Both the position numbers and the translations under genes were made by a program. From NCBI GenBank assembly GCA_000442015.1, contig KE561122.1, forward strand, positions 1 through 42,538: a stretch of DNA of 42,538 nt. Reading direction: 5' to 3'. The notes under the pieces were generated by a model. The model searched no databases. It saw only the letters and a list, made by a program, of their open reading frames with translations, and was not told where the DNA came from. Positions 2,056-22,638 of this stretch are shown piece after piece (the first letter of the stretch is position 1; each line of letters starts with the position of its first letter). The DNA is from Rozella allomycis CSF55. Its lineage: Eukaryota.

Positions 2056-2776
2056 ATGACAGAAAATGACGAATATGACAATAATACAGTCGATGAAACA
2101 GCAACCGATATTCAGCAAAATCAAGATGATTATAATCTGGATCTCTTGACTTTTCGTGATATTGGGGATCAGGCGCATTGGATGCTGAGTTCAAGGAAAA
2201 TGGGGTTCGGTGTGGAAAATTTACGCGATGATCAGGTTGAAACGTTTTGGCAGTCGGATGGCAATCAACCTCATTTAATCAATATCATGTTTTCAAGAAA
2301 AACTTCGGTTTATGTAATTAGTATATTGTATACTAATACATAGGCGCTGGCAGTATATTTAGATTACAGACAAGATGAAAGTTATACGCCGCAAAAGATA
2401 CTTATTAGGGCCGGTTATACATACCATGATTTACAAGTACTTTAGAATGGATAGTATGATTAGGATGTATGCCAAAAGGAACTTAATGAGCCATGCGGTT
2501 GGACATTATTCCCGTTAAGTGATGATGAACAGTAAACATTTATCGCTTTTAGAAAAAGAATCGTTCAAATCCACCTCATACAAGTTGTGATACTCANTTC
2601 ACCTCATTCAAGTTGTGATACTCACAAACCATCAGAACGGAAGAGACTCCCACATTCGACTGTTAAAAGTACTTGTACCCCGAAAACAGAATTTTGGTAA
2701 TGATGACGAGGACTCCAAAAGTGAACAGATAACTAGAAAATACGAAGAAAGTCAATTTTATTCCATTATCAGATAA
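2056..2776 (+). CDS. APC10: Anaphase-promoting complex subunit 10 (Doc1), 3 introns; assembly N plus duplicated segment at 2571-2624
   Basis: Motifs 'WMLSSRKMGFGVENLRDD..TFWQSDGNQPHLINI', 'LDYRQDESYTP' and 'NHQNGRDSHIR', plus a C-terminal IR tail (…YSIIR*). Confidence 0.95.
2571..2624. other. Assembly artefact: about 25-bp duplication around a single N (2597)
   Basis: cacctcatacaagttgtgatactca N tt cacctcattcaagttgtgatactca; removing one copy restores the APC10 frame. Confidence 0.85.
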
Positions 2777-2823: not shown

Positions 2824-3421
2824 TCATACAGTTTTTGATTGTAGAATTAAAGCGACAATTAAACCATATAGACCCAACACTTCAGCAAAAATGAGCATCA
2901 AGACCATTGCCACGTAAACTCGAGATTCTTTAGCAAAATTTCTAACAGAGGAATCTCCCACAATTCCAACAGTCCAGCCTGCTGCAACACCTGATAATCC
3001 TACACTGAGACCAGCTCCTAAATGGGCAGCACCAGATTGAAGAGAATAATTTTGATTTGGCATTACAAACATTAACAAAACATTTCTTTACTTGATCCGG
3101 TAATAAGAACTGCCACAACTAGCCCATAAATACCGATAATACCAGCCATAACAACTGGAATTAACGATCGCATTATTAATTGAGGTTTAAACGTACCCAT
3201 ACCAGCAATACCGATACCTAATATGGTCAAAACATTATTTACATACCTTTTAATAAAAGTTATTTTCGTTACCTGATTTAGCTGTGCCATAGGCCGCACC
3301 TAACGCTAAATACAAATAAAGAACACTGTTTACCACAAAATATCATTGCAAAGGTTGCACCAGCAAAACCAAAAAATGGTGCATAGGGTGGACAGCGTTC
3401 TGTATATTCAAACACATCCAT
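2824..3421 (-). CDS. VMA11: V-ATPase 16 kDa proteolipid subunit (c/c', Vma11-like)
   Basis: Spliced '[66 protein letters not shown]'. Needs a tandem intron (3218-3272) and a GT-TG intron (3066-3091). The c' versus c assignment is less certain. Confidence 0.9.
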
Positions 3422-3612
3422 TGCAAAGGCTTTGTATATAGAACTGAAACGTGGCTTGACTTGATGGCTGTGGACTCAAGTGTAAGGGTTCCAACATTTT
3501 TTAATTAAAATCTCTTTTACAATCAATACTAGATCTTCCATGTAATTGGGATAATTGGTGATCATAGGTCTCGAGTTGCTTTGCCACACATTAGCCACTC
3601 TTTTTTGTGGAT

Positions 3613-3954
3613 ATGAATCCCCAGAATAACGTCACCGTAAGAGTGATTTTAACAAAATTAAACAGTATCACTCGTATCCAAAATATAACACTGCAACTGA
3701 ACAGAACGGGAACTTGTATAACCGACAAGCAGGCACTGTCCCGAATCTACCGGTCACTTACACAGATTACGTATATCCAAGTAAGCTATATTATTGATTA
3801 ATTAAATAGCTCACGCTAAGGCGAAAAAGGAAAAGAAAGAAGACAATACATGTTTAGGAATGTAAGACGCGTAAATAAAACTAAGAAAAGATTGGCGGGC
3901 GCTTTGTGCTTTATTTGCATAGCAGGAACAGCCGCTATTGGGGGCAAGAAATAG
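3613..3954 (+). CDS. Small CYSTM-like tail-anchored protein, 3 introns (missed by ORF track)
   Basis: Spliced MNPQNNVT|YHSYPKY…TDYVYP|THAKAKKEKKEDNTCLG|ILAGALCFICIAGTAAIGGKK*. Three canonical micro-introns, and a C-terminal 'CL…GALC..C' module. Confidence 0.65.
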
Positions 3955-5496: not shown

Positions 5497-8400
5497 TTAT
5501 TCGATAAACTTTAGTAGATTTGAGGCTTCTTTGATGTTTTCAGTAGACATTTTGATGAGTGCTCTGGGTAATAAAGTAAATGGCCTTATGAATTTATCTC
5601 TTTCAATATCATTTTCATGGAGAGAAGTGACAATTGTTCTAATTGCACACTCATATAAACCTATATGATTGCCTTGAAAAAATAACGAAAGGCTCTTTGT
5701 TTCATTAGGCTTGAGATCTATGGCTAAATCACTTAAGCTATAGTTTTTTTCCTGCTGCTCTAAATTCATAGAAACATGAACGGCTATGGCGGAAGTATTT
5801 TGTATTGCTATATTTTTCTTCTTATTTATTAATTGGCCTTCCATTTCCTGAATCAATGTTCCGACTATTAGATGATGAGCAATTTCTTCGTCTTCAACTA
5901 GACCCAAGCCTGGCGTCAAAGATTTAATGAATTGTATAGGCGAGCCATTGAAACTAACTTGGAACAAAATTTTTATCGAATATCCCTCAAAATCGCATAT
6001 TATGGAAGACAAATACAATCCAGGCGTCAGTGAATGAACCTTGACTTCAATGGGAAGAATTCCATAACTTTCAATACATTTTTCATGTTTAATGGAAACA
6101 TTCAAAAATTGGTCGCATAAAACTTTAGTCTTTACAGCTGAAGATAGAATAGAAAGATTCTCTACATTGACAACAATAGTTTGTGATTCTCCTATCTTTA
6201 GAGGGCTAAAGAAAAGGACATGGCTTGCATCGTGATCAGTAAAATCTGTTCTTGGATAAATAATCCTATCAATAGGATCTTCACTTGACACATTACAAGA
6301 AAACCCAAGGCTGTGGCCTTTCATTAAAACAAAAGTTTTTTCCTTCTTGCCTCCATATTCACATTCTATATTATAATCGACATCAACATCTGATTTTAGC
6401 GGTTTTGTTAAAACTTCAATTTCTTTGCATTCTCCCGGCTGCAACCAACCATTAAATTGAGGTATCTGAACATTGGTTATTTTTTCATTATTTTTAGATC
6501 TCAAGTGATAAAAGGTTTTATACATCCTGCAATTTCTAAGCACTATCTTGTCCTTTGAAGTATAATTAACAAAGCAATTTGATATAGTGGATTCACTTTT
6601 GGTAAATTCAATTAATTCATTCAAGCATTCGGCTCTAATTTCGGTAATGTAAATTTTGTTAGCTAGTCTAGGGAGCAGAGAACAGGGCTCCTCGTTTAGA
6701 ACATTGAATCTCAAAAAACATCTTAACCTACATTCCATTATGGGAATCACTGTGACTGAAATATTTATTTCTTCGCCTGGCTGTAATGATATCGCATCTT
6801 TTTCGTAAAGAACAAATGCGTTGGGAAGCAAAACTCTAGGAAAACAATCTATTGTAGCCAGATCATAATGTCTAAAGTCAAATGGATCCAAAATATTCAA
6901 AGACTCGTCAACTTGCATTTGATGACTTATTCTAGCCTTTATAAGGATGTTTCCGCAGTTCCTTATTTGCACCTGTTCGATATGTTTGGAAAAAGGCTTT
7001 ATTAGACCCAAATCTAACAAATGATTGCTAAATTCTAAAGAAATATGATTCGAGACTTTTTTCTGATACAAAAAACACTCCCCAGAATCCTTTATTAGGA
7101 ACTGAGTATTTAATGGTCCGCATGTATGTTGATATGTGATTTCCCTGTTTTTGTTTGAAACACAAGATCCTCTAACAATTAGTTCCAAATGAGTATCTTC
7201 GTTGACTGGCACTTTTGAAAGCTGAGACAAGAAAGATTTAATAAAAAGTGTGCAAGAGAATTCATGAAATCGAGGAGATGTTGGGCTGTACTTTGCAACA
7301 AACGTAATCTTACCGTTCGGTGGGAATTCGACATTGGATGGAGATACAGAAAATACAGAATGACATTGTTGAGCTATAGTGGACACATCTTTTTCTTTGA
7401 CTTCCCAATATGTTTGAATAGCAAAAGAATTTTGATTGATAACCGAAAATTCAAATTGTCGAGTTTCATTAGCGAAAACATCTTTCATATCTTTGACCAA
7501 TATTGAACTGGAATTCTCAAAGCAAAATCTTTTATACTCGGCCATTCCTTCCAGAGAAAAATGAAATATTTTAAGAGTATCACTTATTACAGAAAATGAA
7601 TGTTTAATAGCCCCTTCTTGCTCTGGTTTGATGTCCACGCAGATGACGATTTCTTTGTCCTTTTCAAGTTCAAATTTTTCAGGGTGCACAATAATAGTTT
7701 CATGAAATAGGGCATTCAGTTTGGAACCAGCAGCAAAATTTAATGTACTGGAATCAAATGAATCCAAATTGATATGATCTGGGAAAATTTGGAATTTGGA
7801 ATTGCCTTGGATATTTTTTAACTTCATTTGTACGCGCTTTTTGTGATTAACTAAGCTGCCACCAATACTAATTAGTCTGTTGGATAAACTTTTGCCTTCA
7901 TAAATCAATTCTGGATCCATGTTTTGTGTAATGATGGGAACAATGTATTCTTTGCCTGAACTTAGCTGACACTTTATATCATATTCGTTTTTAAAACAAT
8001 TTACGGGCTTGAAATATATATTCAGGTCTAAAGATAACCCGGGCGCAAGATTAATATCATTATTCAGATTAGCGTTTTCACATACAATTTTAACTACATT
8101 GGCTTGAGGAAATTTAATTCTAAACTTTAAGATTTCTTTGGAACCATTTTTAAGATTTAATTTCCTAACGTATGTTTCATTTGGAACATAATCTGTAAAA
8201 TTGACGGATTCGGGCTTCACAATCAAAATTTCAGCCTTTTCCTTAATTTTTGTTTGAGCTTCATGTATGCTTATTATTTGAGTGTCAGAATATTCTTCAT
8301 ACTTTTTCAAATTGTTGACAGGTTTGACATGTGAATACTTTTTCTTGGGAATGATTTGTGTAGAATCTTCAATTGGCGCTAACGGATTTATGTAAAGAAC

Positions 8401-8877
8401 CTTCTTTGCGTCATCAATTGTGAAATAATCATTTAGATCAATATTTTCCGATTTTTTAGTTGTTAATAAAGAATTCAAAGCATCAATGATGTCTTGTTGA
8501 CCATTTTTAGTTATAATATCGTCTAAATTATTTTGAATGGTGTTAAAGATGGATTCGCATTCTTGATAGCATTCGTTATATTCCTGAAGAATTTTTGCCC
8601 TTTTATTTTTTCCTTGTTCCACAATGCCCCTAATTTTATCCATACTTTCCTTTATCATTTTTTCATCGTCTTCCAAGTTGAACTTTAAGGAATCATTACT
8701 AATAGATTTTGCTTTTTTCAAATCATTTTCTGTCTTATTTTTATTCAATGAATGTTTTCTCTTTTCCGTTGAAACTGATGTTTTTGGTCGATTATCTTCA
8801 ATCTTTGGCAAAGAGTTTTGTGCATTTTCAAATATGAGATTAAATTCTTTTATGGCATCTGTGAATATTTTCTCCAT
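5497..8877 (-). CDS. DLEC1: DLEC1/CFAP81-like ciliary protein with ASH/Ig-like domains (1126 aa ORF)
   Basis: 'VKPESVNFTDYVPNETYVRKLNLKN', 'LAPGLSLDLNIYFKP' and repeated 'L.PGE…I.V' ASH-type motifs resemble DLEC1. Uninterrupted ORF. Confidence 0.65.
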   Translation of the reverse strand: MEKIFTDAIKEFNLIFENAQNSLPKIEDNRPKTSVSTEKRKHSLNKNKTENDLKKAKSISNDSLKFNLEDDEKMIKESMDKIRGIVEQGKNKRAKILQEYNECYQECESIFNTIQNNLDDIITKNGQQDIIDALNSLLTTKKSENIDLNDYFTIDDAKKVLYINPLAPIEDSTQIIPKKKYSHVKPVNNLKKYEEYSDTQIISIHEAQTKIKEKAEILIVKPESVNFTDYVPNETYVRKLNLKNGSKEILKFRIKFPQANVVKIVCENANLNNDINLAPGLSLDLNIYFKPVNCFKNEYDIKCQLSSGKEYIVPIITQNMDPELIYEGKSLSNRLISIGGSLVNHKKRVQMKLKNIQGNSKFQIFPDHINLDSFDSSTLNFAAGSKLNALFHETIIVHPEKFELEKDKEIVICVDIKPEQEGAIKHSFSVISDTLKIFHFSLEGMAEYKRFCFENSSSILVKDMKDVFANETRQFEFSVINQNSFAIQTYWEVKEKDVSTIAQQCHSVFSVSPSNVEFPPNGKITFVAKYSPTSPRFHEFSCTLFIKSFLSQLSKVPVNEDTHLELIVRGSCVSNKNREITYQHTCGPLNTQFLIKDSGECFLYQKKVSNHISLEFSNHLLDLGLIKPFSKHIEQVQIRNCGNILIKARISHQMQVDESLNILDPFDFRHYDLATIDCFPRVLLPNAFVLYEKDAISLQPGEEINISVTVIPIMECRLRCFLRFNVLNEEPCSLLPRLANKIYITEIRAECLNELIEFTKSESTISNCFVNYTSKDKIVLRNCRMYKTFYHLRSKNNEKITNVQIPQFNGWLQPGECKEIEVLTKPLKSDVDVDYNIECEYGGKKEKTFVLMKGHSLGFSCNVSSEDPIDRIIYPRTDFTDHDASHVLFFSPLKIGESQTIVVNVENLSILSSAVKTKVLCDQFLNVSIKHEKCIESYGILPIEVKVHSLTPGLYLSSIICDFEGYSIKILFQVSFNGSPIQFIKSLTPGLGLVEDEEIAHHLIVGTLIQEMEGQLINKKKNIAIQNTSAIAVHVSMNLEQQEKNYSLSDLAIDLKPNETKSLSLFFQGNHIGLYECAIRTIVTSLHENDIERDKFIRPFTLLPRALIKMSTENIKEASNLLKFIE

Positions 8878-8918
8878 TCAGCTTTTGGTTTCTAGGTCCA
8901 ACTAAAAACAACATAAAA

Positions 8919-10305
8919 ATGGAATTTCATTTTGACGTTACACAAGTTCTCAAACGACCAATAAGTGTTCTTTCGTATGAAAATGATATAAGGATACTAG
9001 AAAAAGTGCCTTCTCGAAAGTAATAGAATAAATTTGACTTTAATTGATATTATTTAGAGCAAATTCAAGAAATTGTAGATGAACTTGGGTACGCATCATC
9101 AAAGGTTATTAATATTGTCATGAAAAATCAAGGCCCAAAAATTAAAGTATCCGATTACCACGTATCACAAAATAAGAGAAAATACTGACCAGAGACTATA
9201 CATTATCAGAGATGAATTTCCGGAAGAAGTTGACAAGGATGATAATTACTATGTACACATGATGAATGCGACTATAAAAGCTAAAGCGAATGATAATGAT
9301 GTGCAACCTGCAGCGGAAATATTCAAAGGTTGCATGAAGGAACTACAAAGAGCTGAATATCATCAAGCAAGCGCCGTATCAAAACTTTTATCTCAGCTTC
9401 CTGGTATAAATAATAACCAGAGATCATCCATTGTTGCCAACAATGTGTCTACAGAAAAATTGTCGGAAACTGGACCAAGAAAGAATATAATACATGGTTT
9501 TTTAAAAGTGGGGACAAAAGTTTTGTTTATATCGGTAAATAACATTCATGATATCTATAGGATGATCAGGGTAGACAACATCAAATCCAGCCACTATGTC
9601 TTTTGGATATATATATTCATGAAAACAGTCAAAGGAAGGGATTCGGGAAGAAACTTTTTGATCACATGCTCATGGTAAGAAGTGTGTTTTAACTGCAAAT
9701 GATGGAAGGAGTTCAACCCTACAAACTGGCATATGATAAACCGTCGGAGAAGATGCTGTCATTTCTTTCAAAGCACTACAATTTGAAGAGTTATCTACCT
9801 CAAGCAAATAATTTTGTTGTATTTAGGGATTACGGATTGAGTTATATGAATTTTGTGTTGAGAAGGGAACCGGCAAGGAAAATGGTTCTGACTGGATCTA
9901 AATTGAATAGCCGGGTAGCTGTCAAAAATATGAAAGTTATGAGTAAAAGCCCGACGAAAAATGTAAATGTATATGTGTGGAGTGATGAAGAGTGTGAATT
10001 CAGAATCTAGTAATCAAGATTTAAGGGCATTGTCACCATTAAAGAATCCCAACTATTTGACAGGAAAATCAGAAGGAAAGTCTAGTTTTTCAACTCTTCT
10101 TGAAGAAGATGATATTAAAAAATCGAGTGGACTGCTTTCTAGTCAAAGTCAGTCTACTGTCAGATCTTCTGTTTCACATTTGCCTGCATTAAGTTTTGGA
10201 TCTAGGGATATTTTGAATGATAAGAGAAAGACTCCATCTACTCCTAAAGAAAAGTATGGACGATTGACTCCATTATTATCAGCAAAGAATAAACGACACT
10301 TTTAA
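8919..10305 (+). CDS. ATAT1: Alpha-tubulin N-acetyltransferase (MEC-17 family), about 5 introns
   Basis: Motifs 'MEFHFDV', 'IVDELGYASSKAQKL..PITT', 'GFLKVGTKVLF', 'PLCLLDIYIHENSQRKGFGKKLFDHML' and 'LAYDKPSEKMLSFLSKHY…PQANNFVVF'. Confidence 0.95.
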
Positions 10306-10334
10306 TATTAAAAATAATTGAGAGGAAATGTTTA

Positions 10335-20316: not shown

Positions 20317-22638
20317 TTATTGACCAAAAACGACAGCCTTTAAGATTTTTCTAATTCCTAGCAATACTTTGGGCCGCTTTTTATAATCATAGAAGCAATT
20401 TACTGTTCCATCGATAGACAAATCATCTGTACGAATATTAGATATGACATCACTATGATGTGCAGTGAAGAAGCTCTTGAGTTCACCAATATCTAAATTT
20501 TCAGTGGATGCAAAGTTTAAACACTTTTTGCTTTCTTTAATGTCTAATTGAACTAAAAGTTTAGTTATAAAATCTAATTTCTTATTTAGTTCTGCTCTAT
20601 ATTTCTCTAGTCCGTGATCAAAAGATTTATTTAAAGCCAACGCCTTATTAGAGACATAAACTCTCACTACTTCAATTAATTTATGTATTTGGTTAAATGT
20701 GTCTACAACGTAACCTTCTTGTTTGGCTTATAAATGAAAAATCACAATAACTACCTTGTTGAGTGTAAGGATAAGCCAGAATGGCATCACATAGTAAATC
20801 TTTTAAAATAACTTTCTTTACAAGAGCATCACCTAAATTTGCTTTGAAAGAATTCGCGACTTCAGAAGTAATTTTCAGTGCGTCAAGAATATTACTTTGA
20901 ACAAAAAGTCGCGTAATGGATTACCTGCATATTAACACTGTATTGGTTCCAATTGAGTCTAAAATATTGGATGTGTAGATTATAAGAGATGATGGCTTAA
21001 CTTGAATATCGCCTATAAAATTGTCCTTTTTTAAACAAACTACCCTGTTTATAGATTGTTTCAAAGATTGGATGAATAATTGATTTTAGAAATATTTGAA
21101 GGCAGTTGTCTGACAAGTATTTAAATAAAGTGATAGTAAGGCTTTTGCTGCTCAGAATATTCCTCCATGAAAGTTCTTTATAGGTTCTTAATTGAACTTA
21201 CCCAATTCAAATGATAAAATTTCCATTAAGAGATCGTTCAATTTTGAATATGAAAGAAATACTTTCATGATATTTTGGATGACTAACTGTCGGTTTGAAA
21301 ATGGCACCTTTGTCAGGGTCAAAAATACAGGTTTTAGTATTGAAGGCCTTGAATTTATAAAAATCTTTTCTTGCATTGAAAGAAAAGTTACATTTATAAT
21401 GAAGGTATCTTCTATCGACTCTTTTGGCCAGCTAGATAACAGAAATTTAGTCTTTTCAATTGAGAATGTCAAAGATACCGATTCTTTGTCTTTTATTCGT
21501 TTCACAGCTGGAAAGAGGCAATAATAAAGTAATTGTGAAAGATCATCGATGAATTCCAAGTTTTGTTTGCCTATTGCTTTCACAATATTAAAGGTTTGGT
21601 TCCAAACCTCATTTATTGAAAATTCCATTAAATTTTACCACATTTTTCATTATTCATGAACAGCTTCATTTCTTCGTATGTCCATGCCAACTTCCCCTCT
21701 TCCAAACGAAATAATTGATTGGAATCGAAAATCGCTAGCAATTTAACAACAGAAAAGTACTCAAAGAGAATTTCAGCAAAATTCCAATCTTTTATATAAT
21801 TTTCACCTTCTATTATTATTCTATTGACCTTTTCAATGGAAATACAGTTGAATTCATGCATTGCAAGCTTTGGTAAAGTTATCTTTTGAATGTGTTGATC
21901 ATTTTTGATAATAAATTTGTATATTATTCTAACTAAGGTATTTTTTTGGTCATTCGTCAAATTCATGTTTTTTAAAACACTGACATTCTCGTCCAGATTC
22001 ATTATAAGCCTCTTTACACTTTCAGACATCTCCATTGATATATTAACATAATACAACTTTTGTGATCCGTTAGTTATGTCGGGGTCTTTGTTTCCTACCA
22101 CTTCATTTCCTTCAAGGCTACAATTTGATAAACACAAAATGTTGTCAATGTCATTTTCTTCATTCCTATACGGTGAAGCCTTATTTTATTTATTCTTGTG
22201 AAGAAATTACGGGATATTCAAATGTATGCGGCTTTATGAAACTGTTATTCTCTACTGTTTGTCTCATGTTCTCTCTTGTAATAATTTCCTCTTGCATGAT
22301 TTCTAAATTTTTAGTTAATAAAGATGGTGATGGGATTCGATACACGGGCTTAATATCATTGTAATGGACTTCTTTTTGGACTTCGCTTTCTATCATATCA
22401 AAATTCAATAACACTATGGCGTCCCTTTCTTGTTCTAAATGGTCTTTATTTGACACCGCTAATTTATTTTTATTCGGAATGATATTGACGCGCTCTTTAG
22501 GTTTACTGTCAACATCAACAGGAATATTCTCGTGCAACTGAGCATGCCTATCCCATACCAAACAGATCATTACAATTTTGATAAATCATGATATGTTTTG
22601 AGTCTTGATTTATCCCATGCAGCTTTATCCAAACTCAT
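20317..22638 (-). CDS. Multi-exon protein with a degenerate NF1-type RasGAP domain (pseudo-GAP), about 7 introns
   Basis: Micro-introns join ORFs 22190-22570, 21628-22137, 21188-21628, three short exons and 20317-20667. 'VPFSNRQLVIQNIMKVFLSYSKLNDLLMEILSFELELSWRNILSSKSLT…FLKSIIHPIF' aligns by eye with the neurofibromin GAP-related domain. The junction at about 21610-21638 is uncertain. Confidence 0.55.

Follow-up and report, generated by a model that had tools for sequence, protein, structure and literature searches.

Does a gene of Rozella allomycis contain introns that end in TG instead of AG? The question is raised by positions 9020-9046 of contig KE561122.1, 27 nucleotides (nt) which start with GTAATAG, end in TTG and lie near the 5' end of a gene on the forward strand. 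The contig, all 42.5 kb (42,538 nt) of which was analysed and is called the window here, belongs to a genome assembly of 11.86 Mb in 1059 contigs. The host gene is identified by its sequence as the ATAT1/Mec-17 tubulin acetyltransferase, with three exons above the cut-off of Pfam family PF05301 and an N-terminus resembling the MEF...G stretch of homologs (n=73). The stretch 9020-9046 is probably a real intron of the major spliceosome with TG as its productive 3' splice site, to which a probability of roughly 0.78 is assigned. It is the sequence that is confirmed, not the splicing event, and the GT-TG reading is supported computationally.

The letters and coordinates are those given in a preliminary description of the locus, and excision of the 27 nt preserves the frame from the ATG at 8919 to the Mec-17 domain, as proposed there. 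When kept in the transcript, the stretch introduces three in-frame stops. The TAG at 9057, used with donor 9020 (38-nt intron), leads to a stop in 6-7 codons, in agreement with the earlier claim, and the GAG at 9059 (40-nt intron) does the same. The final gene model, for which 60 tiles of 10 kb and the window served as the training set (together about 5% of the genome), takes this intron and a second GT-TG candidate, intron 4 (9675-9701), resulting in a predicted protein of 416 residues. The annotated protein at the locus (P0001, named from Rozella allomycis) lacks the residues flanking both introns, namely the N-terminus plus 16 catalytic-domain residues. The 27 nt amount to a whole number of codons and the frame carries on past them, as would be expected if there were no intron and a code with reassigned stops allowed the stretch to be translated. 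However, TAA, TAG and TGA would then all need reading, genes across the tiles are intact under the standard code and end in ordinary stops, and class members of 26 and 28 nt shift the frame, which makes read-through the most improbable of the explanations considered.

The preliminary description had named a 54-nt intron (9006-9059) as the sole canonical alternative. This holds among single all-AG introns of up to 60 nt, but not for sets of several introns: with 1-3 introns allowed, 38 all-AG solutions are free of stops, in 29 of which every intron is at most 60 nt, and one example combines 8975-9000 (26 nt, GTATG...TAG) with 9020-9059. AG-only splicing of ATAT1, either by the 54-nt intron or by this pair, in which the TAG is skipped for the adjacent GAG, is an unlikely alternative. 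Both routes are stop-free, 8975-9000 resembles a normal 26-nt intron, calls of 33 nt or more exist (82 of about 1310), and in P0014 and P0040, whose N-termini are the most similar among the homologs, the N-terminal stretch is only 41 residues long, near the 39 of the 54-nt model. However, the combined splice and coding score is +1.9 nats for 9020-9046, compared with -2.5 for the two-intron route and -4.4 for 9006-9059, and a profile of 73 ATAT1 homologs assigns 61.1 bits to the TG model, against 53.5 and 55.8 bits, respectively. The N-terminal stretch comprises 38-64 residues in these homologs, with a mode of 47-49, and would have 48 residues in the TG model, 39 in the 54-nt model and 35 in the two-intron model. 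GTG donors occur in 21/1231 calls and G at position -3 in 59/1622, and 9006-9059 has no internal junction, unlike the pairs of stacked 26-31-nt units that account for 9/30 calls of 52-60 nt.

Homology favours donor 9020 with a single intron and by itself cannot separate 27, 30 and 33 nt from this donor; it is the splice model that selects +27. Another non-AG acceptor behind the correct donor 9020, located at 30 nt (ATA at 9049), at 33 nt, or at 28 nt (GA) in combination with 8975-9000, therefore has to be weighed, and it appears very unlikely. The 30-nt model (9020-9049) has the top profile score, 62.3 bits, but its splice score is -7.8 compared with -1.5, its combined score is -1.9 nats, and non-G calls elsewhere in the genome gave no clean junction (see below). 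For intron 4, the AG rival of the same length (9682-9708) has a splice score of -5.5 against -1.2 and a profile score of 164.8 against 166.9 bits, and it carries no A at +23 or +24 from its donor. Thus, intron 4 is a putative second TG case in ATAT1, favoured over the AG rival by donor, A at +23 and profile.

Four of 15 sequencing runs (X1-X4) were compared with the window; all behaved as DNA, with no splice joints. A look-up of RNA runs covering 8880-10330 returned none, which speaks neither for nor against the splicing. Run X1 forms a single contig over 8786-9332 at a depth of 285, with no other letters and no gaps; the assembly may have been built from X1, in which case this agreement is not independent. 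Runs X2 (8660-9323) and X4 (7936-9332) are gapless, with 2 and 20 other letters at places mostly not located. No indel between 4754 and 11217 is listed in any of the four runs. An indel at 9020-9046 is thus excluded, and a base substitution at its TG is unlikely. Over intron 4, the X1 contig has one difference, the position of which was not located. It is accordingly hard to credit that the TG stems from misassembly or from damage to a TAG allele, or that exon 1 is disused in a decaying gene. Assembly faults are known in the window (a false duplication at 2570-2597, and six places within 9498-10146 where X1, X2 and X4 all differ from it), and the doubts about the origin of X1 and the unlocated differences in X2 and X4 also leave room for such an error. 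Against this stand the unbroken X1 contig, the lack of listed indels, and an exon 1 and catalytic domain that are conserved and open.

The introns predicted in this genome are short and uniform. Of 1231 AG-ended calls, 996 are of 26-29 nt, 1110 of 26-31 nt and 26 of 34-45 nt, while the refined model made only 1/1238 calls shorter than 26 nt. The donor is GTA in 1103/1231 calls, and neither a pyrimidine tract nor a branch motif is present in the predicted AG introns of the training tiles. Instead, position +23 counted from the donor is an A in 88, 71, 66 and 66% of the AG introns of 26, 27, 28 and 29 nt in these tiles, and in 89, 65, 63 and 71% of those in the hold-out, which consisted of kinase, Ras and other loci. 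Without any gene model, A at +23 is found in 50-60% of raw GTAA...AG stretches of 26-29 nt, compared with 30-39% for control donors. This A is presumed to be the branch adenosine, in which case no more than 3-8 nt would separate it from the 3' end. The 'branch-like CTTTAAT' of the preliminary description carries A at +23 and +24 of the ATAT1 intron 1, the position conserved in the genome, and is a candidate for the role suggested. The stacking of whole units in longer introns fits a size-limited machine.

Whether TG ends form a class was first examined with all 15 non-AG ends set at equal odds. TG was the commonest non-AG call in the tiles (20/94, 20/89 and 18/88 in three model rounds). At +26 to +31, TG occupies 35/228 frame-compatible and 19/456 incompatible positions (Fisher p 1.3e-6), and in the hold-out alone 8/52 and 3/104 (p 0.007). 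Around AG introns the corresponding rates are 7.5% and 5.4%, and the excess at compatible positions over the former is significant (p 4.5e-5). Apart from TG, no non-AG end is clearly enriched. The TG excess amounts to about 18 in some 1870 introns, and after one re-estimation of the odds 32/1313 calls were TG, which places its share at an estimated 1-2.5% of introns. There is no depletion of TG upstream of AGs in use (26/406 at +26), which rules out strict scanning for the first G; TG would therefore be a fallback. A further TG call, of 29 nt, is found in the window at 21610-21638 on the reverse strand, with a GAG acceptor 2 nt beyond and no Pfam support.

Protein homology offers a separate view of these calls. 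Of 48 non-AG calls ending in TG, CG or GG, 32 had scannable flanks and 11 had one Pfam family on both sides, two of which were dropped as repeat domains. Exact Pfam register was obtained in 8/9 informative calls (5 TG, including ATAT1 intron 4, 2 CG and 1 GG), and the remaining one is off by five positions; for 7/8 in-register calls, no AG alternative of the same length can be reached by sliding within 24 nt. As a control, 95 calls not ending in G gave 41 scanned and 5 with one family on both sides, one being dropped as a repeat; of the four informative cases, three were out of register and one was a canonical intron beside a frameshift. In a Rab5-like gene (L119:1543-1569), a 27-nt GT-TG intron is needed to restore the WDTAGQE context seen in the paralog L101, and there is no AG between +9 and +48 of its donor. 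For the proteolipid of the V-ATPase, the GT-TG model of intron 3 tops all models enumerated, with 259.2 bits compared with 235.6 for the best AG model, and yields the modal loop length (34/47 homologs in which the pattern matched); this candidate (3066-3091) lies outside the pieces shown in the comparison with the DNA runs. Several TG members, namely that of the V-ATPase gene, that at locus L072 and both at locus L038, have no AG within 24 nt downstream. No close relatives were found for comparison of orthologous introns; 13 metagenome loci, 37-59% identical, were uninformative, and word searches for ATAT1 and Prp18 yielded proteins of Rozella only.

A number of observations weigh against the proposed TG splicing. 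All-AG routes through the exon 1 region of ATAT1 do exist, the two homologs with the most similar N-termini come close to the length given by one of them, and the TG odds behind the splice and coding scores come from a re-estimation on this same genome. In the hold-out, AA (6) exceeds TG (4) among 26 raw non-AG calls. Raw dinucleotide counts behind GTAA show a peak of AG at 26-29 and none of TG; restricting them to stretches with A at +23 gives a weak TG excess, raw counts being too insensitive for a class of 1-2%. A at +23 occurs in 25/41 TG calls and in 37/63 non-G calls and so does not separate the two, the V-ATPase candidate has no A at +23 or +24, and the non-depletion of TG upstream of used AGs belongs here as well. 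Assembly faults can mimic such calls: a TG call at 2669-2696 sits behind the 28-nt false duplication and is false, and an AA call at L038 conceals a canonical intron and a frameshift. Finally, the loop of the splicing factor Prp18, discussed below, was compared with only two PDB chains, one of which (9if7_SD) also departs from the yeast loop.

By its 5' end, ATAT1 intron 1 is of the U2 type, having a GT with the donor consensus of the genome (GTAAT). The U12-type 5' motif is RTATCCTT, whereas 9020-9046 starts GTAATAGA. There is no 3' AG; since the intron ends in TTG, in agreement with the DNA contig, it is filed as a U2-type variant. In humans, TG 3' splice sites of U2-type introns make up 0.02% of sites and are always alternatives beside an AG; no constitutive ones were found (Szafranski et al. 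2007, PMC2374985). ATAT1 intron 1 shares with them the GT donor, the TG end, the probable use of the major spliceosome and nearby AGs, 11 and 13 nt downstream. Unlike the human sites as described there, the TG would not be an alternative to a productive AG, as both AGs lead to stops with donor 9020 alone and no other site close to the donor is in frame; Rozella would use TG in about 1-2.5% of introns, and several other members lack an AG within 24 nt, as noted above.

In Saccharomyces cerevisiae without Prp18, or with a mutated Prp18 loop, UUG and AUG are among the most used BG ends, and the shortest distance from branch to 3' site is 7 nt (PMC10711555). The Rozella ends are similar in that the last G is kept and the presumed branch point is close. 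In contrast to these mutant errors, Rozella appears to use TG as a wild-type route, at a presumed distance of 3-8 nt and with Prp18 present, its loop diverged. Introns of myxozoans and Dicyema are of 20-30 nt, with a GTA donor, no pyrimidine tract and a conserved A that lies farther from the AG as the intron lengthens (PMC13644364); they resemble Rozella introns in the ultra-short size, the donor, the lack of a tract and the A anchored to the 5' end, but differ in that no non-AG ends are described in the parts of that source considered, which do not mention Rozella. The 15-16-nt introns of Stentor have the branch A at position 10 of 15 or 11 of 16, and ordinary small nuclear RNAs (snRNAs) (PMC9505925). 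Tiny introns, a positionally fixed A, the branch role of which is presumed in Rozella, and ordinary snRNAs are thus common to both, although according to that account the A is fixed to the 3' end in Stentor and to the 5' end in Rozella. No report of non-AG introns in Rozella was found in the open-licence literature; a related source (PMC8476143), in the part considered, deals with intron density only.

The small class of TG ends suggests that the cut point may be set largely by distance. In the mechanism proposed here, the branch A would be fixed at +23 or +24 by how far it lies from the donor, with the 3' site having to fall 3-8 nt behind it, at +26 to +31. An AG within this range would be used; otherwise a site keeping the last G, mostly TG and also CG or GG, would be accepted. 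In ATAT1 intron 1 the candidate ends at +26 to +31 are TT, TG, GA, AT, TA and AT; the only G of this range is that of TG, at +27, and TG would accordingly be used.

The genome contains major-spliceosome parts, including U2, U6, Prp8, U2AF35, Slu7 and Prp18. Change or loss of U2AF35, Slu7, the alpha-finger region of Prp8, U2 or U6 was rejected as a cause, as all look ordinary. In Rozella Prp18, the VGIH stretch of the yeast loop aligns with INLN plus one extra residue; the loop was read from one open exon and is identical in a second record of the protein. This loop is termed highly conserved (PMC5873924). In yeast it lies beside nucleotides -3/-4 of the 3' site and Prp18 sets the minimum branch distance; without Prp18 or with the loop mutated, BG ends and branch-proximal sites are used, and in the loop mutants the sites used carry changes at -2 and -1 (PMC10711555). 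Speculatively, the diverged loop might make room for the very short branch-to-3' distance as well as for the loose -2 position, and its divergence is offered as a lead only. The full proposal, a measuring spliceosome with a branch A at +23, a 3' site 3-8 nt behind it, an AG that is dispensable if the last G is kept, hundreds of obligatory TG/CG/GG introns and a remodelled Prp18 loop in the 3'-site channel as the enabler, is tentative and is given less than even odds. The coding sequence of the loop (L137:1561-1752) itself holds a stretch of 29 nt that runs from GTA to AG and has an A at +23; its removal would lead to a stop, and an unproductive splice is possible.

What is known at present is that human TG acceptors are rare alternatives tied to an AG (PMC2374985) and that the tiny introns of myxozoans have a 5'-anchored A (PMC13644364). 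If confirmed, the Rozella introns would mean that a wild-type major spliceosome has obligatory acceptors other than AG, unlike the human data (PMC2374985), and works at a branch-to-3' distance below the 7 nt of Prp18-null yeast (PMC10711555). Docking and proofreading of the 3' site would become testable through a natural variant, the Prp18 loop, and public gene models of this key early-branching relative of fungi, such as P0001, would be wrong at TG sites. If true, the constraint of a measuring spliceosome would also explain longer introns as stacks of 26-31-nt units.

Table. Predicted features of the ATAT1 gene and the GT-TG candidate of the V-ATPase proteolipid gene in the window.
Feature	Position	Strand	Basis or remark
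ATAT1 exon 1, conserved N-terminal strand region	8919..9019	+	73 homologs; tblastn with P0014 residues 1-50
Candidate intron 1, 27 nt, GT...TG, phase 2	9020..9046	+	sequence, scores, X1 DNA contig
A at +23 and +24, candidate branch adenosine	9042..9043	+	genome-wide A position; presumed branch role
Nearest downstream AGs (TAG 9057, GAG 9059)	9055..9059	+	11 and 13 nt past TG; out of frame with donor 9020 alone
ATAT1 exon 2	9047..9104	+	gene model; tblastn
Intron 2, 28 nt, GT-AG	9105..9132	+	gene model
ATAT1 exon 3, long insertion relative to homologs	9133..9534	+	PF05301 positions 41-68; gene model
Intron 3, 26 nt, GT-AG	9535..9560	+	gene model
ATAT1 exon 4	9561..9674	+	PF05301 positions 91-127
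Candidate intron 4, 27 nt, GTAAG...ATG, GT-TG	9675..9701	+	exact PF05301 register
ATAT1 exon 5	9702..9962	+	PF05301 positions 130-172
Intron 5, 28 nt, GT-AG	9963..9990	+	ab initio only
ATAT1 last exon, low-complexity tail, TAA stop	9991..10305	+	gene model
Candidate V-ATPase proteolipid intron 3, 26 nt, GT...TG	3066..3091	-	profile of 105 homologs

Compared with most homologs, ATAT1 has an insertion of roughly 80-90 residues within the acetyltransferase domain (window 9230-9500). The start codon of a divergent gene of 1126 amino acids, similar to CFAP65/CFAP74/HYDIN, is separated from the ATAT1 start by 41 nt (8878-8918), and the two form a head-to-head pair related to the flagellum.

Irregularities of the assembly were noted at several loci. 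The false duplication at window 2570-2597, in a presumably APC10-like gene, contains an N and is left out in X1, X2 and X4. At 6489-8449 and 9498-10146 the deep DNA runs depart from the window at many places, at full depth in some and at partial depth in others, representing either several haplotypes or assembly errors. The Prp8 locus (L153, reverse strand, about 930-1430) has short local duplications and an N and is likely misassembled. An FAD-oxidase gene (L038:508-650, 1222-1290) holds two TG-ended candidates and, just behind a canonical intron, a one-base frameshift that is probably an assembly fault.

Stacked units were seen in individual genes as well. Intron 2 of the V-ATPase proteolipid gene (window 3218-3272, reverse strand), 55 nt long, consists of units of 26 and 29 nt joined AG|GT around a zero-length exon, and the Rab5-like gene has a stacked intron pair at L119:1784-1841. 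A Gpi16-like gene (L084, reverse strand, about 3600-3810 and 2520-2750) contains runs of stacked units, several of which are near-identical tandem copies.
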